A DNA stretch of 64,000 nt. Origin: Armatimonadota bacterium. GTDB taxonomy: Bacteria; Armatimonadota; HRBIN16. The DNA is taken from the NCBI GenBank assembly GCA_963677485.1, contig OY781964.1:4960001-5024000 (forward strand). The letters run 5' to 3'. Shown in pieces: positions 3,105-36,819 of this stretch (positions within the stretch are counted from its first letter, which is position 1; the number at the start of each line of letters is the position of its first letter). Both the position numbers and the translations under genes were made by a program. A model generated the notes under the pieces. That model ran no database searches. It saw only the letters and a program-made list of their open reading frames with translations, and was not told the origin of the DNA.

Positions 3105-3426
3105 CCGGAGTATCTATGGGCCTCGCTGCCTGCTTGGCGCCATCTGCGATAGCAGCGCTTTCAGTTACGTTCCCTTTGGCCGCAGATGGGGCCTTTGCCG
3201 CTACTGCCTTGCCAGAGCTGCGCGGAGGCGCCTTCACTCCCGGTTTTGGCTCTGACTCCGGCTCTGGCCCAGTCAACGGCTCTATACGTGTTAACAGCCC
3301 GTCTTCTATGCACCGGTTCATCTGGGGGGTGAGCGTCTCCACGCTCGCAGTCCCACCTGGGGTTAGCTTGAGCCCGGCATCAGCAATGAGCAGCAAGCCG
3401 GGTCTCACGTTCTTTACCTTGATCAC
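3085..3426 (-). CDS. Phage hypothetical protein following major capsid gene
   Basis: GGAGG SD; Pro/Ala/Lys-rich tail; synteny. Confidence 0.65.
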   Translation of the reverse strand: MIKVKNVRPGLLLIADAGLKLTPGGTASVETLTPQMNRCIEDGLLTRIEPLTGPEPESEPKPGVKAPPRSSGKAVAAKAPSAAKGNVTESAAIADGAKQAARPIDTPGENVGS

Positions 3427-3438
3427 TTATAGGCCTCC

Positions 3439-4302
3439 TTAGGGCAGAATCTTAATCTTAGCGAGAATCTCTGGGCGGGTGATGCCCTGCCCCAGTTCCG
3501 ACCACACTAGCCAGCCCGTCTTGAAGCGGGTCTTCTGCTCAATGGCCTCGGTCTTCAGCGCCTCGCGGATGGGCATCTTACCGATCTCCTCATCGGGAAT
3601 AATCAGGATCTCATCCATGTCGGCAGACGCGGTCAGCATGATGCCGCCGGTGCCGTAGTTCTTGATCACACCCTTAGTGCGAAACTCAGCCCTGGTTTCG
3701 GGATCAAGGTCCCAGTCACGCATGTCGTTAAACCGGCGGCCACGCATCACGATAAACTTCACCGCTAGCTCCAGGTCCTCAATGATGGAGATCGCCTCGT
3801 TCAAGGCGTCATCGGTGAGCTTGCCGCCGGTGACCTCTATCGTGTTCGCGGCAGGCACCGCCTTCGAAATCACAGAGATGGTGCGCTTATCCATCTCCTT
3901 ACGGATCTCTTTTGCCGCGGATGTCTGGATATCCATAAGCGTGCCGATATTGCCGTGCTTGAGCACAGAGATGTCGACCATGGGCTCTGCGTGAATACGG
4001 TGTGTCGGGAACTCCACTTCGTCCTGACCTACCTCCTGTTCACGTGCCTCACCCTCGGTGCTAATCCAGTAGGCCTTCACCGTGGGCCGCTTCTGGTAGA
4101 CAGGACGCTCACCCGTAGGCAGCGTATGCTGGGTCAGTAGGAGCGAAGATTTCTCCTTACGATCTATCTCCTGAGCGATGGGGCCAGCGATGGCCGCGGC
4201 CAGTGCACGCATACCTTCTGGAGATTCAAGCGCCTCGCTCATAAGCCGCGCCATCGCCTCCATATACTCCTGGCTGTGAATGCTAGTCTGAGATGTGTTC
4301 AT
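3439..4302 (-). CDS. Major capsid protein (HK97 fold)
   Basis: 287 aa, strong GGAGG SD, follows protease and decoration genes, ends GITRPEILAKIKI as capsid proteins typically do. Confidence 0.8.
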   Translation of the reverse strand: MNTSQTSIHSQEYMEAMARLMSEALESPEGMRALAAAIAGPIAQEIDRKEKSSLLLTQHTLPTGERPVYQKRPTVKAYWISTEGEAREQEVGQDEVEFPTHRIHAEPMVDISVLKHGNIGTLMDIQTSAAKEIRKEMDKRTISVISKAVPAANTIEVTGGKLTDDALNEAISIIEDLELAVKFIVMRGRRFNDMRDWDLDPETRAEFRTKGVIKNYGTGGIMLTASADMDEILIIPDEEIGKMPIREALKTEAIEQKTRFKTGWLVWSELGQGITRPEILAKIKILP

Positions 4303-4323
4303 CTGTTCGTCTATTCCTCCGTC

Positions 4324-4686
4324 CTAAATAAGCAAGCGGTACTTAAGCGTCCCGCTCGAAATAGAGAGCGCTTGAGCGACCACTTTGTCATCCACTCCGG
4401 CGCTAGCGGCGAGCTTACCGCTCACAGCGACCTTGAGACTATCGCCTGCTGTGATGTTGCCCTCGTACACGTCGGTCTCATACACCCCGCCCATGCAGAA
4501 GATGCCGGGCATCTCGCCGTTACTGTAGTCTTTGATGAGCACTCCGAAGCTGCTGACGCTCGGGTCTGTGTTCACTGCAAACAGGTCGTTACCTACGATC
4601 TTCACGAACTGACCGCAAGAACCTGCGCCCTGCATATATCCGTGGCCATATGCTAGCCCTCGATGAGCTGCGTTAAGATATGCCAT
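4324..4686 (-). CDS. Putative capsid decoration (cement) protein
   Basis: 120 aa Gly-rich beta protein (GVYETD..EG.I.AGD.L....GKL) between protease and capsid genes. Confidence 0.65.
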   Translation of the reverse strand: MAYLNAAHRGLAYGHGYMQGAGSCGQFVKIVGNDLFAVNTDPSVSSFGVLIKDYSNGEMPGIFCMGGVYETDVYEGNITAGDSLKVAVSGKLAASAGVDDKVVAQALSISSGTLKYRLLI

Positions 4687-4698
4687 GTTTACTCCTCC

Positions 4699-7095
4699 TT
4701 AGTTGCCTTCGCTAGCGAGACCAACCCGCTCACGATAGGCGGCCATGAATCCGTCCCGGAGCTTATCTTCCAGGGAGGACTTCTTGTCGTCTACACTTAG
4801 GGCACGCACACCTGCGTCTGTCCTGAGTGAATGGGAAGCAGTTGCCGACGACACCGGTGGTGTCAACGCTGCCGTCTTTTCGGCCTGATCTGCTTTGTTC
4901 TCACCAGCCTGCTTTGCCGCGTTCTGGCAATCAGACCTCGACTGGATCACCCTTTCAAACGCGGCTTCGGTAGCCGCAAACGCCTCGTCGGAAAGCGCAG
5001 CCAGCCGGCTAAGTTCCTGCTCCTTATCCTCCTCAGAGCTAAACGGCATGCCGCTTCGTTCGAGCTTCTTTAGTAGCTTCTGTGCTCGTGCTTTGTTCGC
5101 CGCGGCCTTGCTCTGCGCTTCTAGGTCCTGCACCTGCTTTTGAAGCTCAAGAATCTGGTTCTTTAGCGCCTTGTTTTCGGTCTCAAGCTCCTTCACTCGG
5201 GCTTTGTCGTCAACTGGGGGCACGCCGGCGCCGGCTGGGGCCTGTTGCTTCTTTGCAGCCTCAAGCTGCTCCTCGGTGTCTTTGTGAATCTCCTCCACTA
5301 GGTTGCCTCCTGTGTTTTTGCAACTGCACTGATGCGCCTCATCTGAGGCGACTTGTGTGATTCGCGCATTTTCATCTGCTCCTTTACGGTCGAGAAGTCC
5401 GAGTCCGGTGAATGTCACTCCGTGAAGGATCTCAAACACCGGCTTACCTTGATACTCCGCACCTTTGAACTTGCGCAGGTGCGTGCAGTAGTCATTCTTT
5501 GAGCTGACCTTCGCGGCGCAGATTGAGCACTCGCCGCTCTCGTAGTCACACTCCATCGAGACCTGCGTAATGATGCCGCGTTTCATAAGCTTGTGAGCAA
5601 GCGAAGCCGTGGGTGTGTCCGCAGTAAATAACTCGCCCACGCACTCGATACGCCCGCCTGCCTCGTCATCCACGAACTCAGCGCCGATGATGCCGCCCAC
5701 GATATCAGTCAGGTCCTGCGAGTGCTTGAGGTCGATCTTCTTGTTGATAGCTGTCGAGTAGCGGGTCGATAGCTCTTCTGGCAGAAAGTGGTCCCCGTTC
5801 TTGTTGGTGCCAGCCCTGCACATCACGAAGCTAAACTGCGGGTCGCCTGCATTGGGGTTCAGGTCGATTGCTGAAGCCGACATACCAGCACCCATGGCCA
5901 TATCCACTGGGATGATGGTGTGACAGTTAGCTGCCTTAGCTAAAGGTAAACTCTGCGCCTGGGCCGACTTAACCCCCTTAGTGCAGATGAATAGCCGCTC
6001 CATGGCCACCGAGTTTTCGGAGTGCTTGGCGGAGATGCTATACTTGTGCTGACGCGACTGCATCCGGCTCTCTTTACCACTCTCCGAGATGATCTGCTTC
6101 ATCTCTACCTCGTTTGGGTAGGCATGGTCACGGTAGGAGATCAGCCAGTTCGCGATATGCTTTGCGCTCCCAAGGAACGTGCTGAAGAACTCATTGGCAC
6201 TCGCTTTGGTGACCGTCTTGTGCTCTGTGGCGTAATGGTGGGTCTTTGAATCTTCGTTAATGACCAGTCCGTCCCAGTAAGTCATAAGGCCCTCTACGAA
6301 GTGGTAACTCTTCTCATAGTTAGTCGTAGAGAACTCAGTCGCATAAGGCGGATCGAAATAGGCCAGGTCGACCTTCGCTTCCGGCAGCACCTCATTGATG
6401 TCTTTGTTAAGCGCCTTACACTCCTTTCCGTTGTCGAAGATGAGGGCGTTGATGCGTGCAATATTGTCAGAGAAGCGCTGTATGAACTCCTCTGGTGTGT
6501 CTTGCCGCTTGCCGTAGTCTGTCGAAGAAGAAAAGTGACCGAAGCCGCCCTTGCCAGACAGGCAAGTCTTACCGAGTGCAAACAGCGCGATGTCCTTCTT
6601 ATACCCTTCCAGTTTGTCTGCATTTGCTCTGATGTCATCTATAACCCCGTGCACTCCGCCTGCGAAGAATAACCCCTTGAAGTTGTCCTGGACAAAGGTC
6701 CCTGCCTTTGGGTTCTTCGCAAGCAGAGCGGCGAGTTCGTCTTCACTAATCCGCACCGCTGTGTTCTCGACGATAGCGCGAGCAGCGTGGTATGAGTAGC
6801 GCAGACGGTCGTTGGCGGTGACCTTAAGACCCTTGGTCTTGTACATGTAGGCCACCACGCCAGATCCGGAAAACGCGTCAATGACTGAGTTCACACCCTC
6901 TGGGGTATGTCTCCATATCCAGTCGATAAGCTTCTGCTTGGAGCCTATGTAGTTGGTGATGTATTTCGGTCGATCTTCGGCGGGCTGCTCCTCAGTGACT
7001 AGCTCCCCCGCTTCAGAAAGAAGCTCAAGTTGACAGGATGCATCAGCCTCAAGTAGGAAGGCCAGCCGGTCACGATCTGTTGCAAATAACTCCAT
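4699..7095 (-). CDS. Fusion: N6-adenine DNA methyltransferase (D12/Dam-like) + prohead protease + coiled-coil scaffold
   Basis: NYIGSK, DAFSGSG (motif I) and FDPPY (motif IV) in residues ~45-375; NKNGD, LKH, VSMEC and C..C..C.H in ~420-585; heptad coiled coil at the C-terminus. Confidence 0.85.
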   Translation of the reverse strand: MELFATDRDRLAFLLEADASCQLELLSEAGELVTEEQPAEDRPKYITNYIGSKQKLIDWIWRHTPEGVNSVIDAFSGSGVVAYMYKTKGLKVTANDRLRYSYHAARAIVENTAVRISEDELAALLAKNPKAGTFVQDNFKGLFFAGGVHGVIDDIRANADKLEGYKKDIALFALGKTCLSGKGGFGHFSSSTDYGKRQDTPEEFIQRFSDNIARINALIFDNGKECKALNKDINEVLPEAKVDLAYFDPPYATEFSTTNYEKSYHFVEGLMTYWDGLVINEDSKTHHYATEHKTVTKASANEFFSTFLGSAKHIANWLISYRDHAYPNEVEMKQIISESGKESRMQSRQHKYSISAKHSENSVAMERLFICTKGVKSAQAQSLPLAKAANCHTIIPVDMAMGAGMSASAIDLNPNAGDPQFSFVMCRAGTNKNGDHFLPEELSTRYSTAINKKIDLKHSQDLTDIVGGIIGAEFVDDEAGGRIECVGELFTADTPTASLAHKLMKRGIITQVSMECDYESGECSICAAKVSSKNDYCTHLRKFKGAEYQGKPVFEILHGVTFTGLGLLDRKGADENARITQVASDEAHQCSCKNTGGNLVEEIHKDTEEQLEAAKKQQAPAGAGVPPVDDKARVKELETENKALKNQILELQKQVQDLEAQSKAAANKARAQKLLKKLERSGMPFSSEEDKEQELSRLAALSDEAFAATEAAFERVIQSRSDCQNAAKQAGENKADQAEKTAALTPPVSSATASHSLRTDAGVRALSVDDKKSSLEDKLRDGFMAAYRERVGLASEGN

Positions 7096-7131
7096 TTATC
7101 TCTCCCCTGCAGATTGAGGGTGATTATCATA

Positions 7132-7177
7132 CCCCTCCACTTGATATTTACGCGCGAAAAATGGAAAGTGTCGGAAA
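7132..7177 (-). promoter_or_regulatory. Phage promoter motif I (TCCGACACTTT-N~9-TCGCGCGTAAATAT..TGGAGGG) upstream of the head operon
   Basis: One of five near-identical copies, each oriented toward a downstream gene. Confidence 0.7.
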
Positions 7178-7517
7178 TGGGCTTTTGAGGGGTTTTCGGG
7201 CCGATATTGCTGCCATTTCGAGTGATTGAAGCGGTATTATGGTATCAGTGACGTGACCATGTGGCGTCTGAATGGGGCATTTTGACACTAATTAATTAGT
7301 GTATGATGGATTTCAACACAGCCGGATCACCTCTCTTAGAGAGCAGGTTCAGGGTCATAGATTACTCCCCATATTACGATGGACAGAGTAATCAGGTAAA
7401 CTGTGAACATAAAGGCAAAACATTTAAATGAACATATGCAGGTACCGGGCTAACACCGAGCCAAACGTCCGGGCCAAACGTCCGGTGAGCAGTGTTCAGA
7501 ATGGAGTGAATTCATAT

Positions 7518-7838
7518 ATGGATGCAAGTTCATTACCAGAGGGTGGACGGTGGTCTTGTCGCCGTAAGCTGGAGATCGTGCAGCGCATTATTGCTGGCGA
7601 ACCTATAGAAGACGTATCGATGCATATAGGCGTGCCGATTAGTCAGCTTGAAGACTGGCGAGACAAAGCGCTTGCCGGCATGGAAGCGGCTCTGAAGACA
7701 CCTGTTGAGAGCTTAGTAGATCATCAGCTCAAAGTGGCACAGAGGCGTATCAGCGCGCTGTCTATGGAGAATGAACTGCTTTACGAACGCTGCCGCCTGA
7801 TCGACCGCCCTTTTCCCCAGGGGAGGTCGCGAAAATGA
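7518..7838 (+). CDS. IS3-family transposase OrfA-like HTH protein
   Basis: RWS..RKLEIV.RI..GE....VS...GV....L..WR followed by a leucine-zipper-like L..ENELL. Confidence 0.75.
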   Translation: MDASSLPEGGRWSCRRKLEIVQRIIAGEPIEDVSMHIGVPISQLEDWRDKALAGMEAALKTPVESLVDHQLKVAQRRISALSMENELLYERCRLIDRPFPQGRSRK

Positions 7839-8209
7839 GCGCTGCAATCTCCCCTTCAACAAATGCTCGCTACGGGGTAGAACGGGTGTGCCGAGTATGG
7901 GAACAACCCCGCTCCACTTACTATTTAAAGACCACAAGAGTGGTTAAGGTTGCTTCCACCACACCAAAACTGAAGCGTGGGCCAAAGACCGTAATTTCCG
8001 ATGAGGAACTATTAGGTGCCATCCAGAAGGAGATTGAAAGCTCACCCTCAAAGGGTAATAGCTACATGAGAATATACGATTCACTTCACTTCGGCCCGCA
8101 GAAATTACGAGTGGGCAAGAGCCGTGTGCTTCGTCTGATGCGTAAATATGAGTTATTTACCACTTCGCAGGTAACGGGCAGAGTGTATACTGATGCAGAT
8201 ACAGATTAA
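7835..8209 (+). pseudogene. Truncated IS3-family OrfB (N-terminal HTH only, no DDE core)
   Basis: YGVERVCRVW..PRSTYY, KRGPK..SDEELL..I and RVLRLMR, then ends. Confidence 0.75.
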
Positions 8210-9062
8210 GAACACGAACGATGTAGTTATTGTTTCAGGGGAATACCCAAATATGAAGGCTGCCGTGCATGCGAGTAGGGACAGTTTACAAGCTGCCAAC
8301 CTGACGGGTGCCGACTTGTCACATACGGATCTGGACGAGGCCAATCTACGTGGTGCCAAACTGGAACACGCTAATCTTGAAGCTGCTCAGCTATGGGGCG
8401 CTAGTCTTCAAGGGGCCGACCTGACAAAGGCGAATCTTAAAGGTGCCAAGCTAATCAGAGCCAATCTGACCGGGGTTAATCTGAGCAGTGCCAATCTGCA
8501 CAAAGCCAATCTGAGTAATACAGATCTAGTGAATGTCTGTCTGCAAGACGCCAATCTGAGTGAGACAAACCTAACAGGGTCTAACCTAAGTGGTGCTAAT
8601 CTGGCGGGGGCAAACCTGAGCGGCACGTGGATGAATTTCACCACACTGTCCGGTGCTGATTTACACGGTGCTAATCTGAGTGGTGCCCAACTCGAAGATG
8701 CCAAACTCACTGGTGCCAATCTTACTGACGCAAACCTGGAAGGTGCCCATCTGTCTAGCACTGATCTACAAGACGCCAATCTGAGCAGATGCAGTCTCAA
8801 ACATGCCATACTAAATGGAGCTAATCTTACCAAAGCCAATCTAACTCATGCTAATCTGAGCAGTGCCGACCTTACTAGTGCCAAGCTTACTGATGCCAAT
8901 CTAGACGGCGCTAATCTGGAAGGTGTAAATTTGTATCGGGCTCATCTAGACCGCGCCAATACGATCTTAATCAAGCGGTTAACACAGGCTGCTGAGAAGG
9001 AAGCTGAGAAGCAAGCTGAGAAGCAAACTGAGAAGGAAACCAATGTCACGCCCACTTTTTGA
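8193..9062 (+). CDS. Pentapeptide repeat protein
   Basis: Long run of A(N/D)Lxx repeats. Confidence 0.95.
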   Translation: MQIQIKNTNDVVIVSGEYPNMKAAVHASRDSLQAANLTGADLSHTDLDEANLRGAKLEHANLEAAQLWGASLQGADLTKANLKGAKLIRANLTGVNLSSANLHKANLSNTDLVNVCLQDANLSETNLTGSNLSGANLAGANLSGTWMNFTTLSGADLHGANLSGAQLEDAKLTGANLTDANLEGAHLSSTDLQDANLSRCSLKHAILNGANLTKANLTHANLSSADLTSAKLTDANLDGANLEGVNLYRAHLDRANTILIKRLTQAAEKEAEKQAEKQTEKETNVTPTF

Positions 9063-9107
9063 CGTGATAAAGTGCAGTCCATATAAAGGAAGACAGGCAA
9101 TGATCTT

Positions 9108-9584
9108 ATGCAGGTAGAAATTCGGATTATAAGCGGGGCGGTTATAGTTTCAGGAGACTACCCGGATATGAAGGCCGCGGTGCAAGCTAACAAAGACAAG
9201 CTACGCACCGCTAGTCTAGCAGGTGTCGACCTGTCCCATGCAGATCTGAAAGGCGCATTTTTGCGTGATGCCTGTCTGAAGGGTGCCAATCTGCAACATG
9301 CCGATCTTCAGACCGCGGTTCTTTGCAGATCAAGCCTGGATGGTGCTAATCTGACAGGGGCCAACCTACAAGGTGCCGATCTGAAGGGTGCGGATTTAAC
9401 TCATGCGGATCTGAAAGGTGCCAATTTGTGTTATGCGGATCTGCGAGATGCGGACCTGACAGGTGTCAAACTAAGTGGTGCCGTTCTAAAGGATGTGAAG
9501 CTGCGCGGTGCGAAGTCGCATAAAGTCAGGTTTTGCTATTATTGGTTTGCCATCACGTCATTCCTGCGCCTTATGAGGTCATAA
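9108..9584 (+). CDS. Pentapeptide repeat protein (paralog of 8193-9062)
   Basis: A(D/N)Lxx repeats; N-terminus MQ..I....VIVSG.YP.MKAAV.A shared with the upstream gene. Confidence 0.95.
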   Translation: MQVEIRIISGAVIVSGDYPDMKAAVQANKDKLRTASLAGVDLSHADLKGAFLRDACLKGANLQHADLQTAVLCRSSLDGANLTGANLQGADLKGADLTHADLKGANLCYADLRDADLTGVKLSGAVLKDVKLRGAKSHKVRFCYYWFAITSFLRLMRS

Positions 9585-9710
9585 GGGTGAGACACTTTCG
9601 ACACGCCTAACTCTATATGGCGGATATGCATCAACGCTGTTCATGTAGAGGCAGATATGCTTAAGACCAAGACGCTGCTTACCGCCACGACCATGTAATA
9701 GTCACCGTGC

Positions 9711-10052
9711 TCATAGCCTCGATAACCCACCAAGCACACGCGCGGCACATTCCTCAGCTGTCGCGTATTCATCTGTAATAGTGATCTCCCCACGCATGCC
9801 CCGGTACGGTGACATCGTCGCGCGGTGATACGCCAGGAAGCCTTCTGGCAGCGTCTTCACCCCGTTCTCAACAAGTCTATTGAGCACCCAGTCCGCATCC
9901 TCCTGCGCCTCCGCGTTACCAGGCAGATACTCCATCACGATATCAAGCCCAGCGCCATACCCCTGCACCCACACACCTATGGGCTCATAATGGGGGCTGG
10001 TGTCCCGGTCGCGTAGCGTAAATTCCGTCATATAACTCAGTCTCATTGCCAC
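9711..10052 (-). CDS. Hypothetical protein, candidate immunity protein
   Basis: Small acidic ORF overlapping the preceding gene, second gene after the MuF toxin-like gene. Confidence 0.6.
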   Translation of the reverse strand: MAMRLSYMTEFTLRDRDTSPHYEPIGVWVQGYGAGLDIVMEYLPGNAEAQEDADWVLNRLVENGVKTLPEGFLAYHRATMSPYRGMRGEITITDEYATAEECAARVLGGLSRL

Positions 10053-10513
10053 CCCTCCGCCATAGCGATATGCTCCTCAAGAAGCTGTGCATCTATTTGT
10101 TCAAACAGTATTGCATTAGCCGCTTTGTATTTCTGCCAGTTTTTCCAGTCTGCAAGCAGAGCCAGGTCCTGGTTCGGGCAAAGCAGCTCGATATGATACC
10201 TGCGGCTCCGGTCGTCGGTGACGTCCAGCATGTAGGTATCGTCCTGGTGCCAAGCTATTACCTTGATCGTGTGCGCATATTGCCAGCCGTTATTGTAGCC
10301 AGCCGACTTAAACAGCAGCCAGAAGTCGGTGCTTGTGATGTTTCCCGCCGCATCAAAGTGAGGTGCCACACGTGTGACGGTGTAGCTGTCGATTAGGCCA
10401 AAGCCCAGCGCCTCGTGCTTGTCCTCATTCATCTCCGTCCAGGAGCCTTGACTATTGAACTTCTCGAAGAGCCCCTGGAGCCGCGCCTTCAGCTCCGTGA
10501 TGATCTCATTCAT
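10043..10513 (-). CDS. Hypothetical protein, candidate immunity protein
   Basis: Starts 11 bp after the MuF stop with a GGAG SD. Confidence 0.65.
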   Translation of the reverse strand: MNEIITELKARLQGLFEKFNSQGSWTEMNEDKHEALGFGLIDSYTVTRVAPHFDAAGNITSTDFWLLFKSAGYNNGWQYAHTIKVIAWHQDDTYMLDVTDDRSRRYHIELLCPNQDLALLADWKNWQKYKAANAILFEQIDAQLLEEHIAMAEGWQ

Positions 10514-10524
10514 ATTTTGTCTCC

Positions 10525-13500
10525 CTACCTCTCTAACACGATCTGTTCTATTTTGCGGCCGTCGGGCAGCACAGAAATGCCGTGCTTCCTAAATACGTCA
10601 AGCACTCTCGTTCTCTCCTGGGAGCCGCGCACTACGATGCTTTCTAGGTTATCAAGCAGCGTGACCGAGTATTTCAGTATAGTCTCGTTGCCTGACTTAC
10701 TTGAGAAGCTCTTCCATGCCTGTGGATCCGAGCCGCGGTTCTTTGCGACGTAGTCGTCCTTCACTTTACCGAAGGCATCATGGCTGTAGCTTATCGCGTC
10801 CATACGCCTCAGCAGCTGCTTCTTAAAATAGAGCCCCGTCTCCCCTGTTGATGCCGTTGGGGTCTTCTTAATACGCGTGAAGACGTAGCTGGCTCCCCCG
10901 CTATTCATGTCCGATTCGGGGGACATCCCACCAGGAGCTATCCCCGCTCGTAGTTTTTCGACAGTGCTAATCATGGCTCCGTTGTTTTCCAGAACGGTGT
11001 CAAGAAACGAGCTGATGTTCTCACCGTTTGTGAGGCTGTGATGTAAACTGTAGCCCTTCATTTCACGTTCCATATCTGTGTCCGAGATGTCGAAGCGGTA
11101 CTGCTGCCTGTAACCGCCACGCGTGGCACTATCTTTGAATCCAAGCTGATACCGCCCTACCGGGTCATAACCAGGTAGCTTTGTAATATCTGGAGCGCCA
11201 AGCCTGTGCTCCCAGTAGCCGCGCATCGCCTGCACGCGCTCAGTCTTTGTGGCGTTACGACCGTCAAGATCAGAGAGTAGCTGGACATACGCAGGCTCCG
11301 TGTCTGCCTTAGTGACATAAGCCTGCTTTGCTAGATACAGGGCTTCAGAATCCTCGGCAGTGGCAATGTTAGCCTTTACTCCGAGCTTCTCCATGTGCCC
11401 CAGTGCCTTCTCTAAACTTCTCGAATCGGCGTTATTAGGCAGCACAATCTCAAACTCGCCCTGCTGAGCGTAGTGGTTCTTATCTGACCACGGGCGATAT
11501 ATCGCGTGAGTGCCGTCACCGAAGTCTATCTCATACTGCTCACCGTCTAGCATCGAGCGGTTACGAAAGAGCGATGAGTTATCTGCTCCGTCTTGATCAA
11601 CCGAAAGCTCCCCCCGGCTGAGTGTTCGCTTTGTGAGCAGCACCTTTGTTTTCTTCACAGTGTAACCCAGCTCTTCTACCCGCTTCCTAGAAGCAGTATG
11701 CTGCCTTGTATAAGCAGAGAACACGTCGGGGATCTTTTCCCGCTGCTCTACCGACTGCTTTACTCTCTTAAGCCAGGTGATATAACCTTCGGCCATGGCC
11801 TTCACGTCCGGGTCATCTGACTTCGATAGCATTCTCAGAGCATCAAGATGCTTGACTGCCTTATCTATACTCGCCTGGTTATAGGCACCGTCCTGGGCAT
11901 GGTGGTTTACGCTCTTCACCGCAGCGAGGATGTCGGAGGAGAAGCTGTCCTCCTCAAGTAGTTCACCTAGTTTTGGAGCGGTAGTCTGACGATCTGCCTT
12001 CTTTAGAGCCGGCAGTATCTTCAGCTCTGCCTCCGGTCTCAGTTTCATCTTCACCACAGTGCGCGTTTGAGAGTTCACCGTCTCCGTAAAGATAAGAGCG
12101 TTCTGGTCCTCTATGTCACTCTCATCAATGGGTAGTGCTTTACCTTGCCAGCCAAGCTTTCGCGCATCCTCAATCATCTGCTCCTCAGCTTTACCTATGC
12201 GGCCAGCTTTTGGTAGTGACGGCCCGTCTTCAAACCGGAAGCCAGGTTTAGAAAGAACATCTGAATAGAATCCCTCGAAGTTGCTGCGCAGACTATGCTT
12301 TCGCTCGATTGCCAGCTTACTAAACGCCTTCTTCTGGGCGTCAGTGGCAAAGCGTCCCTCCACGTAGGGACGCAGCAGCTCCAGGTAGTCATCATCTGAG
12401 ATGCGCTCTACTTCGCGAATATACCTTAGTGTGACGGAGGGATCAACTGCAACCTTCCCCTGTTTGGCTGCTCTGAACAGCGTGTTATAAAACGGCTCCT
12501 GTTCTCCGCAGGCACCGTTAGGGTGGTAGTCAACAGAGAGTGTGTCTGAGCCGAGGAACTTGGATAGCTGCCCCTTGTCGATGCCGTATACCTTACCGGA
12601 TTTCGCTCTCAGAAACTGCTTGGAGTGGCCGTCATGATTTGAGATGAGCCAGTCAATCACATGCTCACGCTGCACCTGCGATATTTCGTCTGGGGTGAGA
12701 TCACGCGCGTCAAAGCCGGAGAAGTCATACTTTGCAGCTAGATCACTGCGCCATTTCTGGATCGAACCTATGCGCCCGTTGAGACGGATTGTCCGCACCT
12801 CAACGCAGTCGGGGTCTATTAATCTCGCAAGCTTGTAAGCAGCCTCTTCGCCGCGAGCAATGAAGTCGTCTGAAGTGCTGCCTACTGGCTTGAATAGCCA
12901 CTTTTCACCGTTCTGGTCGGTCCAAAACTCCTTCTCATGCGCGCCACCGACCTTAGCTTTACCCTCATACTTGAACTTCTCGGGCTTCCCCATCTCTGAC
13001 CACGCGGAGTCAACATCGAAGAACTCCGAACCCTTCTTAGAAAACGCTGAGGGTGACGCGGTGGTGACGGTCTGCGTGATGGGGTCTGGCTCCGTCTTCG
13101 TTTTTGCAGCTGGGGTTATCGGCTTAGAGGCCTTAACGGAAGCGGACTTGTTCTTTTCGGCCCACTTGGCATGTTTAGCTGCTATGCTATTTTTCGCAGC
13201 ATCTATTTTAGTTTGATCGGTCTCCGTAAACAGCGTGGTCAACTCATCTTTATTAGCCCACTGCCAGTGCGTAAGCTTTGCCTGCTTCGCTGTCTCCTTT
13301 AGGTCACTGGACTTCATGGCAGAAATCTGCTGAGCGAATGTGTGCTTCTTGAGTGCGATTTCCTTTGCGTGCTGCTCTATCACCGCCGCAGGTAGCCCAG
13401 AATCTTTAGCAAGCTGCGTTTCGGCGGCGGACACCGAACTTAGGAAAGATTGATACCCCGCAGGAGAGGACGGCATCACTACCTGCGCCGTGGCTTCCGT

Positions 13501-15150
13501 TAGCGACTGCTCCGCCTTTTTCAGAGCCTCTGCCTTTGCTCCGCTTAGTGCCTGCTGCTTGGCCTGCTCCGCCATCTGCTGACCCGCCGCCTTCTCCAGC
13601 GCTTTTGCTAGCTGCTGCTTGTTCTTAAGCGGAGGGATACCATATTTCTGCTTGGCGGCCAAAAGCATTTGGCCGGATAACCCGCTGTGGTCGATATTTG
13701 GTTCAAGGGTGTCGAGTATCTCGATCACTTCAGACTTTGTGAGGTTGAGTGAGACGCTGTGTTGTTTTGCCATCTCCTTAAGCTGCACTGTCGTTAGTCC
13801 TGACAGGTCTGAGCTTGGCGCCACAAGTTTAGCGGCCTCCTCAAGTGCCTTCGCCTGCTTGAGCGCGGCCTGCTTAGCAGCGAGCAGTTTTACGAGGTCA
13901 TCTTTGCTGCGAAGCGCAGCGATGTTGTATTGCTTGATTTTCGCCTGCAGCGCAGCACCGGAGAGGTCCCCGTGATCCACGCCAGGTTCAGCTACTCCAA
14001 GCAGATGAATGAAGTCAGCCTTAGTGCGGGCCACGCCAATGCCGTTTGCCTTGGCGAGTGTCTGAAGCTGCTTTATAGTAAGCGCGGAGAGATCCGCAAC
14101 CTGACCAGAATCAAAAGCGGACTTAAGCTTCTTCTCTTCTTCCACCTGCTTCTTAGCCTGCTCCTCTATCGCCTGTGGTGGGAGTATGCAGGCAGTCGGC
14201 TCTTCTGCGGCACTCGCTCCAAGTTCACCCCCGCAGACCACAAGCGGCCATGCAGGCAGTGTTGAGCACCGGCAGTTTGGATGCGCAGGTTGACTGGGAA
14301 AGCGGTCCGTATCAAACTGCTTGCCGTCAAGCGCCCCGCAGACAGGGCACATTCGCTCATCTTCCATCGTCATCCACTCTGTCTTTGTCACACCGACCTG
14401 CTGGTGAAACTTAATACGCCCCTGGTTATGCGCGCGCAGCAGTTCTGTGCGAGCGATCATCTCCATGCGGTACTGCGCTTTAGAGAACACCTTACTCCCC
14501 GCGTGGCGGAAAGATTGTTTGTCATCTATCACGCTGCCCATGTCACGGACGATCTCACTTGCACTCTTTCCAGTAGCTATCCCGGCGAAGATGGTCTTCT
14601 TAATGCCGTCTGAAAGCTCCCGGTGCACGTCCCCCGCGAGCACCAAGTTGTAGTTCGCCATAAAGCCAAGCGCATCGGTGTCGATGAGCGTGAACACTGA
14701 GGTAGTGAGTTTGTCAATGCCGCTCGGTGTGAGCTCTTTATAAATCGGCATCTGAGCGGAAGCGAACTCCTCTATCCCGTGATACACCCCTGAGCGAAAG
14801 GATGCGTTACTAGCGCTTTTGAACATAAGGGTCTGCTCACGCTCCAGAGATTTTAGCAGTCCCCCTATCTCGCCGCTTAGCTTCTCAAGACCCAATTTGG
14901 CTGCCAGCTTATTACCGGGTAGCGTCCCGAGTTGCCCGAAGCCTAAGATAGCACTAGATACCAACTTCTGAGCCGATGCGAGTGACTGCTTAAGCCCCAT
15001 CACCACCTGGCTCACATATAGATCGCGGCTAAGCAGGCTTTTATCAGTCGCTTTACGAATGGCCTGGGATTGCGAATTCACATCCGCGATAGCACACAGT
15101 GAAGGCGGTGGAGTATTCATCAGGCCTCCTTCATGCGCAGAAATCGGCAC
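10525..15150 (-). CDS. MuF (SPP1 gp7-like) head protein with HeH/SAP-like repeats, HipA/PI3K-like kinase domain and C-terminal ADP-ribosyltransferase-like domain
   Basis: IARTE, D.R.CP.C..LDG and HPNCRC (MuF); L..LT..QL...AK repeats; WLFKP, EEAAY, DWLISNHDGH and IDKG (kinase); HSL, YVFTR and NET (ART-like, weaker). Confidence 0.8.
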   Translation of the reverse strand: MPISAHEGGLMNTPPPSLCAIADVNSQSQAIRKATDKSLLSRDLYVSQVVMGLKQSLASAQKLVSSAILGFGQLGTLPGNKLAAKLGLEKLSGEIGGLLKSLEREQTLMFKSASNASFRSGVYHGIEEFASAQMPIYKELTPSGIDKLTTSVFTLIDTDALGFMANYNLVLAGDVHRELSDGIKKTIFAGIATGKSASEIVRDMGSVIDDKQSFRHAGSKVFSKAQYRMEMIARTELLRAHNQGRIKFHQQVGVTKTEWMTMEDERMCPVCGALDGKQFDTDRFPSQPAHPNCRCSTLPAWPLVVCGGELGASAAEEPTACILPPQAIEEQAKKQVEEEKKLKSAFDSGQVADLSALTIKQLQTLAKANGIGVARTKADFIHLLGVAEPGVDHGDLSGAALQAKIKQYNIAALRSKDDLVKLLAAKQAALKQAKALEEAAKLVAPSSDLSGLTTVQLKEMAKQHSVSLNLTKSEVIEILDTLEPNIDHSGLSGQMLLAAKQKYGIPPLKNKQQLAKALEKAAGQQMAEQAKQQALSGAKAEALKKAEQSLTEATAQVVMPSSPAGYQSFLSSVSAAETQLAKDSGLPAAVIEQHAKEIALKKHTFAQQISAMKSSDLKETAKQAKLTHWQWANKDELTTLFTETDQTKIDAAKNSIAAKHAKWAEKNKSASVKASKPITPAAKTKTEPDPITQTVTTASPSAFSKKGSEFFDVDSAWSEMGKPEKFKYEGKAKVGGAHEKEFWTDQNGEKWLFKPVGSTSDDFIARGEEAAYKLARLIDPDCVEVRTIRLNGRIGSIQKWRSDLAAKYDFSGFDARDLTPDEISQVQREHVIDWLISNHDGHSKQFLRAKSGKVYGIDKGQLSKFLGSDTLSVDYHPNGACGEQEPFYNTLFRAAKQGKVAVDPSVTLRYIREVERISDDDYLELLRPYVEGRFATDAQKKAFSKLAIERKHSLRSNFEGFYSDVLSKPGFRFEDGPSLPKAGRIGKAEEQMIEDARKLGWQGKALPIDESDIEDQNALIFTETVNSQTRTVVKMKLRPEAELKILPALKKADRQTTAPKLGELLEEDSFSSDILAAVKSVNHHAQDGAYNQASIDKAVKHLDALRMLSKSDDPDVKAMAEGYITWLKRVKQSVEQREKIPDVFSAYTRQHTASRKRVEELGYTVKKTKVLLTKRTLSRGELSVDQDGADNSSLFRNRSMLDGEQYEIDFGDGTHAIYRPWSDKNHYAQQGEFEIVLPNNADSRSLEKALGHMEKLGVKANIATAEDSEALYLAKQAYVTKADTEPAYVQLLSDLDGRNATKTERVQAMRGYWEHRLGAPDITKLPGYDPVGRYQLGFKDSATRGGYRQQYRFDISDTDMEREMKGYSLHHSLTNGENISSFLDTVLENNGAMISTVEKLRAGIAPGGMSPESDMNSGGASYVFTRIKKTPTASTGETGLYFKKQLLRRMDAISYSHDAFGKVKDDYVAKNRGSDPQAWKSFSSKSGNETILKYSVTLLDNLESIVVRGSQERTRVLDVFRKHGISVLPDGRKIEQIVLER

Positions 15151-16658
15151 GCTGGGGTATCAAAGCTCACATCTGCCGACGACACACTACACATGCTGCT
15201 GGGTTCATAGAAGTAACCACACTCGTCGCAGAGTTTGCCGGCATATGACGCCTTCGTAAGCAGGCCGTCCCAGTTCGCAGTGGCCCCGGAGCCAACAGGG
15301 TTCTTCGCCGGGTCTAGTCCAAGCATCTGCTGAGCGGTCTCTATGCTCATAATCCCGGCTACCACCATATCCACAATGGGCTTCACCTGCTTCTCGTCTA
15401 GCAGATCCGCGGACTTTCGTTCGTTCTGGCGATTACCTTCCTCTATCTCAGGGTTCAGATCCATCTTCATCTGCAAAGACGAACGGCTGATGAGCTTTCG
15501 GTCATACAGTTCTATGAGCAGCTTTTTGAAATCCACGGCGTCCGTGGGGTCAAGATCATTAAACAGATACTGGATGCTCTTGCCAGAATGGCCCGCAAGT
15601 TCCAGCCAGTCGGAGTAGATCCAGTCGAGTATCTCGCGGGCCGAATGGGTGATCTCCCTAATCATGACAAGCATCTTCTGCATACTCACAGAGGCTGTCG
15701 CAAAGTTAGGCCCGTCACCTGACACGAGCGAACGAGAAAGTCCCTGGGCGACAACGATGTCTTCCTTCACCTCCTTGACCTTGTCTTCCACGTTTAGCAC
15801 CTGACCCTCGGTGCCGTGCGTTTCGACAGATACATAAAATGGCACAATCATGCCGCTTTTCATGTCCATGTTGTTCATCAAGTCACGCACCTGCTCAAGC
15901 ATCTTCTGATCTGGCATGATCATGCGCTGCTTGAACTCACCGCCCACCTTGATAAACCGGAGCGGCGTGGCCCAGCGCTTAGCGATAGCCTGTTCGGCGC
16001 GCCGGTAGTCACGCAGCAGCTCAATGGACTGGAAGGCCGGAAGCACAAGCGAATTACCTCGCGGTGAGAACTCCGGTGCGTCCCATTTTAGATGTATCGT
16101 CTGCTCCACCGGCAAGGTGATGCCCTCTGCCCCGTTTTGAGCATCATCGGCGTACTGCTTGACTTCTATTAGCTCACCCTGCGAATACTTCACTTTCACA
16201 GATACCGGGTTCACGCAGGTAATCTGTTCGATATCCCGTCCGTCTTTGCTGTAGCGCTTAAAGCCGACCGCGTCCCCCTTAACAAGAAGCTGCAAGATCA
16301 TATCTTTCACAAACCGCGGGATGCGCAGCTGCTTGGCCAGCTCATTTGCTTCAAGTTTCACATGTTCGTCGTCGCTTGTTATCTTCACCTCATCACCCAC
16401 AGAGAAGGTGCGCCATGAGTTCACGCAGTTCTTCACAAGCGGTTCCTCTGTGTAGTATTCCCAGGCCTTCCTTGCCCGGTCTTCCCACGATGCGGGTATG
16501 GCGTCATTCGCACTCACGGCACCAAACGCAGAGGAGCCGAGTGCAGCCATGGTCGCCAGCGGCGTCACTACCTGGCCATATGCCGAGGTGTCCCCCGCCT
16601 CAACTGCGCTGGTATCAGTTATTACCGTGTCATTAATCATCGTGTCGTTATTCACCAT
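15120..16658 (-). CDS. Phage portal protein
   Basis: 512 aa between terminase and MuF; LLVKGDA, IHLK...PRG.S.V..A and NFATA motifs. Confidence 0.85.
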   Translation of the reverse strand: MVNNDTMINDTVITDTSAVEAGDTSAYGQVVTPLATMAALGSSAFGAVSANDAIPASWEDRARKAWEYYTEEPLVKNCVNSWRTFSVGDEVKITSDDEHVKLEANELAKQLRIPRFVKDMILQLLVKGDAVGFKRYSKDGRDIEQITCVNPVSVKVKYSQGELIEVKQYADDAQNGAEGITLPVEQTIHLKWDAPEFSPRGNSLVLPAFQSIELLRDYRRAEQAIAKRWATPLRFIKVGGEFKQRMIMPDQKMLEQVRDLMNNMDMKSGMIVPFYVSVETHGTEGQVLNVEDKVKEVKEDIVVAQGLSRSLVSGDGPNFATASVSMQKMLVMIREITHSAREILDWIYSDWLELAGHSGKSIQYLFNDLDPTDAVDFKKLLIELYDRKLISRSSLQMKMDLNPEIEEGNRQNERKSADLLDEKQVKPIVDMVVAGIMSIETAQQMLGLDPAKNPVGSGATANWDGLLTKASYAGKLCDECGYFYEPSSMCSVSSADVSFDTPACRFLRMKEA

Positions 16659-33702: not shown

Positions 33703-33750
33703 TCATGATGAGCACAGCACATACTGTTCAGCGTGCTCAGGAGGCGACCC

Positions 33751-34689
33751 TTGATAGACTTTCGAACCTTACGATTTGGAATCGAGATAGAGACAGTAGG
33801 TGCCACGCGCAGCTGTGTGGCCAGAGCTATACAGTCGGTAGTAGGCGGTGACGTGAAGCATGTAGGAGTGCCCACTGGCTACGACCCCTATGAGGTCACA
33901 GACTTCAAAAACCGCATCTGGAAAGTGGTGGCAGACAGCTCCCTCTCAGATACAGAATACGAAAAGCGGGCTGAGGTAGTGAGCCCGATCCTCTGCTACT
34001 GCGATCTGCCTGAACTCCAGGAAGTGATCCGTGCCGTTAGGCATTCAGGTGCAAAGTCCAGTGTGCAGTGTGGAGTCCACGTTCACCTTGACTGCAGTGA
34101 GTTCGACGGAAACAGCCTGATCAATCTCGCGAAGCTGTATCACAAACAGGAAGCGCTCATTGTGAAGGCGTTTAGCGTCAGCGAGCAGCGCATGATCCGA
34201 TACGCCAAACCCATGGATCCAAGGTTTATTGCCCGCATAGAGAAGTGCAAGAAACGCGACGTCAGCGCAATCAACTCGCTATGGTATGGCTATGAGAAGC
34301 CAAACCCAGGACGATATGACGTTGAACGCTACGCTGCAGTCAACTTTACATCTTACCTGGTTCGGCGTAGTGTGGAGTTCCGGCTGTTTGGATTTCCCAC
34401 CGAGAAGCTGCATGCAGGCATGGTAAAGGCCTGGGTGACCTTTATACTGGCACTCGGGGCACGAGCACTTAACTGCCGGTGCACATCGAGTCGCAGAAGG
34501 GAGTTTGATCCAGAGACGGCGCGCTATGATTTCAGGGTGTTTGCGGTGATTAACCTGGGCATCATGGGGCCTGAGTTTAGCAGTGTGCGACGTCATTTAC
34601 TGGCTAACCTGAGCGGTGACTGTGCATACAAGCATACAAGACCAAGCGTGGACACCTCGAAGAAGGAGGTGGTCGCATGTGCGGACTAA
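33751..34689 (+). CDS. Putative amidoligase (Amidoligase_2, COOH-NH2 ligase fold)
   Basis: FGIEIE, WKVV.DSSL, EVVSPIL, CGVHVH, RY.AVN and VEFR motifs; TTG start after AGGAGG. Confidence 0.9.
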   Translation: MIDFRTLRFGIEIETVGATRSCVARAIQSVVGGDVKHVGVPTGYDPYEVTDFKNRIWKVVADSSLSDTEYEKRAEVVSPILCYCDLPELQEVIRAVRHSGAKSSVQCGVHVHLDCSEFDGNSLINLAKLYHKQEALIVKAFSVSEQRMIRYAKPMDPRFIARIEKCKKRDVSAINSLWYGYEKPNPGRYDVERYAAVNFTSYLVRRSVEFRLFGFPTEKLHAGMVKAWVTFILALGARALNCRCTSSRRREFDPETARYDFRVFAVINLGIMGPEFSSVRRHLLANLSGDCAYKHTRPSVDTSKKEVVACAD

Positions 34690-35486
34690 CGGGGATTCTA
34701 AAGACGAGTGAGCGTAGAAGCCGGAGGGAGATCAATACGATCTCCAGTCTATTCACTCAGCTGCTCATTGGAAGTGAACACCGCGGCCCACATGCCACGG
34801 GTGCCGCGGTTGTCAGTGAGAGCGGTGAGTATGTTTTGTGCAAAGCTCCCCTGCCGGCATCCGAGTTTGTGTTAAGCGAGGGGTATTGCCAGCTCATATA
34901 CCAAGTGGCATGTGACACCACGCTACTCATGGGGCACACGCGCTGGCCTACTCGCGGAAGTCATCTGGATAACCGGTGTAACCATCCGCTGGTTGGTGAC
35001 GGCCACGGTAGTCACCAATGCATCGCCACGCACAACGGAGACATACCTAACCACATGGTGCTGTCTCGCCAGATGGATCTAAGGCGTGAACTGGAAGTAG
35101 ACAGTGAAGTCATTCTGCGGCTGGCCGAAAAGAATCTATGCAGCTCAGAGATAGACCCGGTGGGCCTCGCGGATGACATATCTCGCTGTCAAGGTCGGCT
35201 CTCCGCTGTGGTCATCGCGACGAGTGATCCAACGAAGACACTGCTTGTCAAAGGCAACCAGCCGCTCGAGCTGCGGTTTCACAAGAGACGTGGCCTGATC
35301 GCCTATGCTTCTGAAGCCGAGATACTTGACGAGGCGATCGGTAATGCCAGAGGCTGGACGGATATCGAGATCCCGGCATGGCACATCGCGGTGGTGGACA
35401 CGAGGTCACTCGTAATGCCGTTAACGCTCTACCCCATCCCGTCATTATGGGATGACATTGACTGGCGGCCAAGGCCATGTCGATGA
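34677..35486 (+). CDS. Class II (Ntn) glutamine amidotransferase
   Basis: N-terminal MCG, HRG.HATG, GHTR..T.G, NHP, HNG.I and DSE motifs. Confidence 0.92.
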   Translation: MCGLTGILKTSERRSRREINTISSLFTQLLIGSEHRGPHATGAAVVSESGEYVLCKAPLPASEFVLSEGYCQLIYQVACDTTLLMGHTRWPTRGSHLDNRCNHPLVGDGHGSHQCIATHNGDIPNHMVLSRQMDLRRELEVDSEVILRLAEKNLCSSEIDPVGLADDISRCQGRLSAVVIATSDPTKTLLVKGNQPLELRFHKRRGLIAYASEAEILDEAIGNARGWTDIEIPAWHIAVVDTRSLVMPLTLYPIPSLWDDIDWRPRPCR

Positions 35487-36112
35487 CACTTGTTCTTGAA
35501 ACGGACGGCGGCATCTCTGAGTTTGTGATGAAACCCATTGACAGGAAGAGCCGCCAGGCGACCACGAAGAGAGTGGCTGTGGACGCTCAAGGCCGGGAAT
35601 GCAGCCGGGCGCTACTCACACGCGATGAACTTCTCTTAGGATCTGGATCAGTGACAGACAACTATGAAGACAAAGACGGCAACAGTGTAGAGCACGGCGA
35701 GGTGATGCAGGTCGACGCGTGTGGTCATACGCTTCTAAACTTGCCAGCGACAATCGGTAGAACGCAGAGACCGGTGGGGCCTGTCGAGGTAGAGCTGCTG
35801 CTTGAGCACACGGTCATGAAAGCATATGTGCTCTTGTCGGCGGTGATTGCTAATGACCTGCGCGATTCGCTTGCGGCCTTAGACGTCTATCAAGTGGCAT
35901 TCAGACCCAGGGCGTCTGTCATAGACCACCCGGCATTCATGCTGGCGAATTCATCTGGCATATTCCTGCTTCAGTGTAGGCCCTGCCTCACACAGTTTAT
36001 ACGCCTTGACCAACCTGTGATACAGGACAGCGAGCTGGACGACGAAGAGGAACTCTGGGACGACTGGCAGATGAGTAGCCAAGCAGATTCCATCGGAGGT
36101 GACGCGTGGTAA
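35477..36112 (+). CDS. Hypothetical protein, divergent Ku-like (by-eye similarity)
   Basis: DG..VE..EV, V....L......AYVL, L...L.......F..R.....AF.L....G.FLL follows the order of Ku core elements; acidic tail. Confidence 0.5.
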   Translation: MSMTLVLETDGGISEFVMKPIDRKSRQATTKRVAVDAQGRECSRALLTRDELLLGSGSVTDNYEDKDGNSVEHGEVMQVDACGHTLLNLPATIGRTQRPVGPVEVELLLEHTVMKAYVLLSAVIANDLRDSLAALDVYQVAFRPRASVIDHPAFMLANSSGIFLLQCRPCLTQFIRLDQPVIQDSELDDEEELWDDWQMSSQADSIGGDAW

Positions 36113-36819
36113 AGATGCGAAGGATCCGGCTTGCTGACCACAAGGGACGTGACGCCACAGTGCTACTCGTGCCAGTTGGTGAGAGTGTGAAATACAAGCA
36201 TCAGGATACTAGCGGTAATCCCGTGCACTCCGTAAGGCGGGTTCGTGCAACGAGTAACACGTGTTCGGATGCGCTGTTTGCCAAATACTCAGACCCCGAC
36301 GAACTGTCGCGGGCGCTTATCGCGGGTGACCCAGATGTTGACTTTGAAATGACGGGGCGAGTGACTGGCCCCTGCGACAGAGTTCACATAGACGGTGACG
36401 GGCAGGTTCTTTACGCACCCTCAGTCATGCAGGTGCGCTGTGCCCCAGACGGGTTGGAATGTGAGCGAAGGCCAATCACCATCCGTGCATCTAACTTGGT
36501 CACCCCCACTGCTCCGGTTTGGTCAGGTGTGTTACTGCCGCGAGCTGAACTTGTCAGGAAATACGCACTCACTCGGGGCTATCAAGTGGTGCATTCTAAC
36601 GCCTTGGAGTTTGACTTCCTGTTTGGTATCGCGTCCTTTCTGGATGAACGAAAAGCTGCAGTCCAGGTCGGATCCGGCAGACGTGGTAACGGGCCATTAA
36701 TCTTTGAGCGTAACGGTCTATCCTTCCGCGGTTTCCTGGACGGCCGGGTACAGGCTGACGCGATGCGGCTGGTTCTGTATCTGGCGGCCTTCGATCTATC
36801 TGCGCAGGAGCAGCGATGA
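36106..36819 (+). CDS. Hypothetical protein, divergent Ku-like (by-eye similarity)
   Basis: LPRAELVRKY...GYQV, FDFLF.IA.FLDE.KAAV, LIFERNG..F.G.L.G......M.LVL resembles the Ku beta-barrel region. Confidence 0.5.
   Translation: MVKMRRIRLADHKGRDATVLLVPVGESVKYKHQDTSGNPVHSVRRVRATSNTCSDALFAKYSDPDELSRALIAGDPDVDFEMTGRVTGPCDRVHIDGDGQVLYAPSVMQVRCAPDGLECERRPITIRASNLVTPTAPVWSGVLLPRAELVRKYALTRGYQVVHSNALEFDFLFGIASFLDERKAAVQVGSGRRGNGPLIFERNGLSFRGFLDGRVQADAMRLVLYLAAFDLSAQEQR

Follow-up and report, generated by a model that had tools for sequence, protein, structure and literature searches.

A Dam-like methyltransferase fused to a predicted prohead protease and scaffold in the head module of an Armatimonadota prophage

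Results

A methyltransferase, a protease and a scaffold in one reading frame

The gene described here lies in a 64,000-nucleotide (nt) stretch of the genome of an Armatimonadota bacterium (GenBank assembly GCA_963677485.1, contig OY781964.1, positions 4,960,001 to 5,024,000; hereafter the window), in the head module of a prophage. It is a single minus-strand open reading frame (ORF) of 798 codons, 4699..7095, which starts with ATG behind a ribosome site of the GGGGAGAG type. A first interpretation of the letters without database searches (the sequence-only reading) had divided this ORF into a leader, a Dam-like DNA methyltransferase (MTase), a linker, a protease-like domain and a coiled-coil scaffold, and our analysis confirmed that the protein consists of a leader, a Dam-like MTase, a linker, a prohead protease and a helical scaffold (Table 1). 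Every anatomical part had been recognized correctly: the MTase, put at about 6960-5970, equals the well-folded part of one structure model; the protease-like domain, put at about 5835-5340, equals the confidently folded core of another; and the C-terminal part gave coiled-coil-type matches only. In Pfam, PF02086 is the sole true domain of the 798-residue protein, and the full-length match in PHROGs is phrog_27806 (residues 1-792, 1061 bits), for which the annotation is merely 'DNA methyltransferase'.

The two segments without a folded domain also carry conserved features. The start and the first 20 or so residues of the leader are conserved among homologues and are among the best-conserved parts of the protein, with L15 and A19 nearly invariant in a 34-sequence alignment; in the predicted MTase model the leader is of low confidence or disordered. 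A helix resembling that of the leader precedes the second MTase unit of the long homologues described below. The linker motif A-N-(C/F/I)-H-T-x-(I/F)-P-V-(D/E) is present in nearly all of 70 sequences, and stand-alone proteases begin with an H-T core as well; the linker may serve in cleavage or docking. Both the linker and the scaffold contain repeated short x-V-(D/E) motifs, which we record as a pattern and to which we attach no claim of cleavage sites.

The MTase part matches PF02086 over residues 49-262 with an E-value of 1.3e-25 and 91.1 bits, against a cut-off of 22. Its model (residues 1-384, built from the 34-row alignment) has a mean predicted local distance difference test (pLDDT) score of 82.2, and the best Foldseek matches in the Protein Data Bank (PDB) were Mcbe1 (2e-6), Escherichia coli Dam (8e-6), T4 Dam (2.7e-4) and DpnM (3.7e-4). 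The motifs FxGxG and DPPY, which we take to be the S-adenosylmethionine-binding motif I and the catalytic motif IV, are both present, and F75, G77, D248, P249, P250 and Y251 are invariant in the alignment. In addition, a motif IV of the form [DNS]PP[YFWH] was found in every MTase unit of all 120 homologues examined, the best 120 of 494 retrieved by a word-indexed search. We conclude from these sequence and model features that the domain is a diverged yet complete Dam-family enzyme, predicted to form N6-methyladenine.

It could be argued that catalysis has been lost and that the MTase-like domain now has a structural role, such as that of a protease spacer or of an internal core protein that binds DNA. 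The divergence of the domain would agree with this, as a phmmer search of the MTase part against PDB sequences gave no match and the template-modelling (TM) score of the model to Dam-family structures is about 0.5 (by target length). However, the universal motif IV, the invariant residues and a Pfam score four times the cut-off make such a loss highly improbable. In 10 distant loci, the MTase part is 28-67% identical and the protease part 49-67%, the lowest MTase value (28%) coming from a fragment truncated by a contig end; the MTase part thus appears to be conserved about as well as the protease part. Two more D12 MTase genes occur in the same genome (G000:C1:638307-638987 and 1807685-1808365); both are 307-residue frames with equal scores and are possibly on a repeated element.

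The gene that bears the protease is placed between the genes for the portal and the major capsid protein. A model of the protease part (residues 385-599, 63-row alignment) has a mean pLDDT of 87.9, rising to about 97 in the core, and this predicted structure confirmed the fold shared by T4 gp21 and the herpesvirus assemblins. The top match in VIA-align was T4 gp21 (5jbl_A, Z 11.4, root-mean-square deviation 3.2, 129 aligned) and the second was the varicella-zoster virus protease (1vzv_A, Z 10.7, deviation 3.0, 116 aligned), followed by the proteases of human cytomegalovirus (7.9) and Kaposi's sarcoma-associated herpesvirus (7.7), with the first unrelated family, MCE domains, at no more than 7.5. 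Foldseek ranks 1-12 were herpesvirus assemblins or T4 gp21, at weak E-values of 4e-3 to 3e-2. Residues 444-547 weakly match the PHROGs family phrog_18299, 'head maturation protease' (E 1.5e-4), and tblastn matches included gp19 of Bacillus phage G and a Gordonia phage protease. Residues H458, S513, C523, C526, C537 and H539 are each conserved in at least 90% of the 63 sequences, and His458 and Ser513 are, by analogy, the candidate catalytic pair.

Table 1. Features of the fusion gene, its nested scaffold gene and the neighbouring head genes (aa, residues of the 798-residue protein)
Feature	Position in window	Residues	Strand	Basis
Leader: N-terminal helix MELFATDRDRLAFLLE.DA, then variable acidic spacer	6961..7095	aa 1-45	-	homologue conservation
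D12-class (Dam-like) N6-adenine DNA MTase	5971..6960	aa 46-375	-	PF02086, motifs, model
MTase motif I, FSGSG	6859-6873	aa 75	-	read in translation
MTase motif IV, DPPY	6343-6354	aa 248	-	read in translation
Linker	5839..5970	aa 376-419	-	conserved motif (see text); low pLDDT
Prohead maturation protease domain	5341..5838	aa 420-585	-	model fold and conserved residues
Candidate catalytic His458	5722-5724	aa 458	-	conservation
Candidate catalytic Ser513	5557-5559	aa 513	-	conservation
CxxC...CxH zinc-knuckle insert in protease		aa 523-539	-	conservation
Shine-Dalgarno AGGAGG of nested scaffold gene	5306..5311		-	7 nt before GTG, read directly
Nested scaffold gene	4699..5298	from aa 600	-	in-frame GTG 5296-5298 to shared stop
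Promoter-like element CCGACAC ... GTAA(A/G)TA	7138..7176		-	alignment of window, L002, L036, L052, L062
Insert genes: two transposase remnants (HTH_Tnp_1, HTH_21), two pentapeptide-repeat proteins	7428-7838, 7835-8209, 8193-9062, 9108-9584		+
Major capsid protein, 287 aa	3439..4302		-	phrog_2522 major head protein, 2e-83
Small head-module ORF, 120 aa	4324..4686		-	weak phrog_673 'head scaffolding protein', 8e-07; syntenic
MuF-domain protein, 1541 aa	10525-15150		-	PF04233 Phage_Mu_F aa 182-297; phrog_6577
Portal	15120-16658		-	phrog_2739, 6.6e-60

A conserved start for the scaffold and none for the protease

The 3' part of the ORF contains a nested gene for the scaffold, whose GTG lies 28 codons past the protease end and whose product would be a helical, coiled-coil protein of 199 residues. 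We surveyed this start in the window and in 64 related loci, which had been kept from a scan of species genomes that found 170 relatives. Among the 56 sequences that hold the protease-end motif, 55 have an ATG, GTG or TTG 22-28 codons after it, behind AGGAG(G). In the 56th (L028, from a Deltaproteobacteria bin), the frame is interrupted by a stop codon after the protease and before the nested start, and the tblastn match is split; this locus is probably a decayed copy. The residues encoded at the nested Shine-Dalgarno (SD) sequence vary among relatives (TGG, EGG, EGD, KGD, SGG and QGE), and the Gly within it is encoded by GGA in 56/56, across 24 distinct nucleotide versions, against a background of 10.8% GGA among the 3741 Gly codons of the same ORFs. 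Because GGA is invariant while the amino acids vary, selection at this site acts on the RNA and not on the protein. Therefore, the gene should also yield a second product, a 199-residue free scaffold that starts from the GTG at residue 600 and has the same C-terminus as the fusion.

This shared C-terminal end is itself conserved (LR.DAGVR..DVDD...SLED.L..GFMAAY..R in the alignment). In a complex prediction, the capsid protein and scaffold residues 659-798 scored 0.37 (runs 0.37, 0.29 and 0.38; contact agreement at least 49%, partner pLDDT at least 49), and the best of three controls scored 0.00. The mark applied to such docking was reached by 116/157 solved complexes and 2/215 mismatches, and at scores of 0.60 or below by just 18/157 solved complexes and both of the passing mismatches; the result weakly suggests that the scaffold end docks on the capsid protein.

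No comparable start was found for the protease. We searched the 70 codons upstream of the protease core in 70 sequences with an open frame there, and a strong SD with a start codon for the protease alone occurred in 2/70, and nowhere in the window. Any four-nucleotide SD match was present in 25/70, mostly from one near-identical clade and at no shared position. As no protease-only start is conserved, the only protease of this phage is, on the evidence of these sequences, made solely as a fusion to the MTase. An internal start giving a separate protease, which the sequence-only reading had named, together with a lack of MTase peptides in proheads or virions, as fatal to its proposal, is thus neither conserved nor present in the window. 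With no protease other than the fused one, every maturing capsid must have held the MTase, provided that this predicted expression pattern holds.

Distribution and variants of the fusion

The protease motif was present in all of the best 120 homologues, which carry either one MTase unit (21) or two (99). The homologues of 1180-1300 residues were at first considered to be capsid-protein fusions; we rejected this, as their sequences show a second, tandem MTase unit. Among relatives on viral contigs (best 80 of 146), a single MTase is present in 55 and a pair in 22, the remaining 3 are truncated by contig ends, and none is without it. Hence, as judged from 77/77 readable N-termini, the MTase fusion appears to be fixed in the close clade.

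More distant forms were sought in an exhaustive profile-free search with residues 385-798, which returned 858 matches at E <=1e-3. PF02086 was found in 17/31 N-terminally extended representatives; among the rest are some truncated MTases. Five representatives (P0123, P0143, P0144, P0159 and P0163) have only a domain of about 100 residues before the protease, and forms that begin with the protease (P0141, P0147, P0165, P0169, P0187 and P0202) were found at <=43% identity only. The comparison of proteases with and without the MTase, which had been proposed as a check along with the original annotation, separates close relatives, all with the enzyme, from stand-alone forms that seem to exist only at that distance. 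One further candidate for a stand-alone protease (P0128, 411 residues) was rejected: the MTase is fused to the protease in each of its 10 genomic relatives, so that P0128 probably represents a partial gene call. A scan with the stand-alone form P0141 found nothing. Taken together, the fusion appears to be derived and to have reached fixation in one large clade, and these sequences indicate that the N-terminus of the protease accepts different modules.

The domain of about 100 residues has the pattern W.ET.NE.R.RV.DP ... LQ.YRF ... W (for example, in P0051, P0048 and P0126) and is located between two MTases, after one MTase, or alone before the protease; it is present in 11 of the 22 two-MTase relatives on viral contigs. 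It matches no Pfam family, and a protein-atlas look-up returned unnamed viral clusters (best score 0.92) with weak leads to protease-bearing clusters. In the INPHARED phage records, the MTase or the protease was matched separately, and none of the records covers 80% of the query.

The head module occurs in prophages assigned to more than 10 bacterial phyla (loci L002-L075 and L081-L160), which is unusually wide for one phage group. Host titles include Armatimonadota, several Desulfobacterota, Gammaproteobacteria, Phycisphaerae, Zixibacteria, Anaerolinea and Nitrospiraceae, as well as Acidobacteriota, Ignavibacteriales, Treponemataceae, Verrucomicrobiota, Hydrogenedentota, Kiritimatiellales and Dehalococcoidia. 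Many of these assignments are metagenome bins, in which phage contigs can be misplaced; closed genomes among the carriers are those of Desulfosarcina, Syntrophus and Sulfidibacter.

Integrity and expression of the window copy

Two sequencing runs from different studies (X1 and X2) cover this region, and the genome may derive from one of them. In X2, a single contig of 33,336 nt is identical to the window over 3400-10600, and two contigs from X1 have no other letters, with one gap somewhere in 4490-10600. The single gap in X1 is what would speak for an artefact, in which two genes had been joined by a sequencing or assembly error, or for an MTase gene followed by a separately translated protease. 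We regard both as nearly inconceivable in view of the identity of the X2 contig, the fused frame that is open in dozens of genomes and in viral contigs from unrelated samples, and the lack of a conserved start before the protease. A stop codon lost by assembly error, a doubt raised together with the sequence-only reading, is therefore not the source of the fused frame.

Upstream of the gene, a 2.6-kb insert occupies 7096-9710, where relatives have only 110-210 nt. Its pentapeptide-repeat proteins have 289 and 158 residues, and the contig of a lake-water relative skips 7311-9108, so the insert site is variable. The promoter-like element (Table 1), situated about 70-90 nt before the start, is common to the window and four divergent relatives. 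As the insert does not come between this element and the gene, the capsid genes may keep a late promoter of their own, and the alignment suggests that this promoter is still in place. The earlier proposal that the gene heads the capsid operon is accordingly plausible, with this shared element as its support. A scan of 6900-9800 for sigma-70 promoters and terminators found fewer sites than in shuffled sequences, and none before the gene. In metatranscriptome run X20, two 151-nt contigs of a relative fall over 6503-6786, which is no proof of transcription.

Genomic setting

Judged from its gene content, the gene sits in the head module of a complete-looking, temperate myovirus prophage. The minus-strand order is terminase small subunit, terminase large subunit, portal, MuF, two small ORFs, the fusion gene, the 120-residue ORF, capsid and neck genes; from portal to capsid, this order recurs in almost every related locus that has sufficient flanking sequence. 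The capsid protein is 60-87% identical in related loci, and its gene is present in one copy in the genome. The left side encodes the tail sheath, tube, a 1070-residue tape measure and baseplate proteins, and the virion is therefore predicted to have a contractile tail. The right side encodes functions of replication and recombination, together with a large serine recombinase (41854-43515).

Some further features were observed on this side. At 33733-39944 on the plus strand, inside the prophage, genes for an Amidoligase_2 protein and a class-II glutamine amidotransferase are clustered with two ORFs of unknown function and with a gene for a 1042-residue protein that joins an ATP-dependent DNA ligase to an AAA ATPase. 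The prophage end (41351-43515) consists of a DUF2924 gene and the large serine recombinase; two further DUF2924 genes are located at 48451-49338 and 53753-54583, and a tmRNA gene (tag ANNNYALAA) at 55526-55877, so there are possibly several integrated elements near ssrA.

Discussion

We propose that the fusion gene is the only gene for head maturation in a temperate myovirus, that it gives two products, and that its MTase is carried by the virion, and we assign this reading a probability of roughly 0.6. Entry of the MTase into the prohead, the core of the sequence-only reading, is a step that we infer, and it gains indirect support because no protease-only start is conserved, because the conserved nested start makes the scaffold alone, because the fusion is universal in the close clade and because the catalytic motifs are retained. 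In the mechanism that we envisage, the shared scaffold end would co-assemble with the capsid protein, so that a few full-length molecules would enter each procapsid beside many free scaffolds. The protease would thus be brought in like lambda gpC or Mu gpI, with the MTase covalently attached. After assembly, the protease would cut the scaffold and probably the linker, leaving a folded 38-kDa MTase inside the shell with the incoming genome. The enzyme could then methylate the phage DNA during or after packaging, or exit with the DNA at the next infection; either route would shield the phage genome from restriction in new hosts, and methylation might then be specific to virions, as the sequence-only reading had supposed.

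Alternatively, the polyprotein, made late in infection, may methylate replicated phage DNA in the cytoplasm before assembly, the fusion coupling the amount and timing of the enzyme to head synthesis; capsid entry would then be a by-product or a means of disposal, with the protease degrading the MTase there. An intact, conserved MTase fits any site of action, late phage MTases acting on replicating DNA are common, and activity within the capsid is itself conjectural, all of which gives this explanation some appeal. However, co-regulation needs only an adjacent gene, and a separate MTase gene was found in 0/77 close relatives. In addition, the fusion still holds in relatives that have diverged to about 45% identity and in those that gained another MTase at the same end, and with the C-terminus bound to the capsid protein the MTase would be at the end pointing into the shell. 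We therefore regard the cytoplasmic site as possible but doubtful, and favour the virion-borne enzyme.

Several points weigh against the virion-borne enzyme as we have set it out. Encapsidation, cleavage, and the place and time of methylation are all steps that we infer. The prohead protease could set the MTase free ahead of assembly or destroy it later; for methylation within the capsid, S-adenosylmethionine must be able to enter, and dense DNA may be a poor substrate. As for the protease, no Pfam protease family (S77, S78 and XkdF included) matched at E <=0.01, a protease-scaffold profile searched against PDB sequences returned coiled-coil and zinc-finger noise only, and His458 and Ser513 are putative catalytic residues, chosen by analogy. 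A docking pass of the kind obtained for the scaffold end is false in most cases, except where the pairing was probable to begin with. With regard to the copy in the window, the X1 assembly differs from it by the one unlocated gap, and the 2.6-kb insert parts the gene from the upstream late genes, which makes normal expression of this copy less than certain.

The layout of a protease followed by a scaffold in one frame, with an internal start that gives abundant scaffold, is familiar from lambda C/Nu3, Mu I/Z and herpesvirus UL26/UL26.5, and the lambda and Mu proteases are loaded through the shared scaffold end. The fusion gene resembles these systems in its predicted assemblin-type fold and its conserved internal start. 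It differs from them in that one or two D12 MTases, and sometimes the extra domain of about 100 residues, stand before the protease, in that the protease is apparently made in no other form, and in the CxxC...CxH insert. In T4, the internal proteins and Alt enter the prohead by means of a capsid-targeting sequence, are trimmed and freed by gp21, the protease whose fold is predicted here, and are ejected with the DNA; the targeting signal is a short N-terminal peptide on separate proteins, whereas the cargo of the fusion gene would be covalently attached at the N-terminus of the protease-scaffold. In engineered P22 capsids, an enzyme on the N-terminal side of the scaffold is encapsulated as the scaffold C-terminus binds the coat protein. 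The P22 system is man-made and without a protease, and the fusion gene would be its natural counterpart with built-in release.

Head-borne enzymes have also been described in other phages. DarB of P1, the methyltransferase-helicase of the 'polyvalent proteins', needs separate loading proteins. On our reading of portions of Iyer et al. 2017 (PMC5512222), DarB is a head-carried, anti-restriction DNA MTase encoded among the virion genes, MTases of this type have an SF2 helicase and LPD36 as their fusion partners, and both DarB and T4 Alt are described as packaged in the head and ejected with the DNA. The fusion gene is similar in that its predicted DNA MTase is encoded among virion genes; in contrast to the DarB pair (PMC5512222), no helicase family was found by Pfam in the 798-residue protein, and the loader would be the protease-scaffold itself. 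The same portions of that source (PMC5512222) describe MuF-domain fusions (the family of SPP1 gp7 and Mu gp30) that carry effector domains, another case in which a head-assembly protein serves as an enzyme carrier, and this prophage has a MuF protein two genes upstream of the fusion gene. The MuF carrier is a portal-associated minor head protein and not a protease-scaffold, and those portions mention no MTase-protease fusion (PMC5512222).

We found no description of an MTase-protease-scaffold fusion in the full-text literature searched, the coverage of which excludes about 1.7 million PubMed Central articles and the subscription journals. The gene layout of a protease with a nested scaffold was known already; what is new here is a DNA-modifying enzyme in front of it. 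To our knowledge, phages carry few anti-defence proteins in the head, and every known case has a dedicated loading route; if our proposal is true, the assembly machinery itself would be the loading device, which would be a simple, testable model tying DNA modification to packaging, a parallel in nature to engineered scaffold-fusion nanoreactors and a possible explanation of how widely this prophage group has spread. In its broadest form, which we put forward only tentatively and consider rather unlikely to hold in full, the capsid of this phage clade would be a natural enzyme container: the scaffold would load one or more modification enzymes, the protease would free them, and the virion would methylate its DNA or inject them. 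The N-terminus of the protease would then be a general cargo slot, filled by one MTase, two MTases or the extra domain of about 100 residues. Built-in, host-independent protection would also help to explain how the head module came to be in more than 10 phyla.

There is also a consequence for annotation, as hundreds of entries named just 'DNA adenine methylase' are prophage head protease/scaffold genes. Separately, the MuF protein of this prophage, which has a long C-terminal part, is conserved in sequence and position among the relatives; it is a possible second effector carried in the head.

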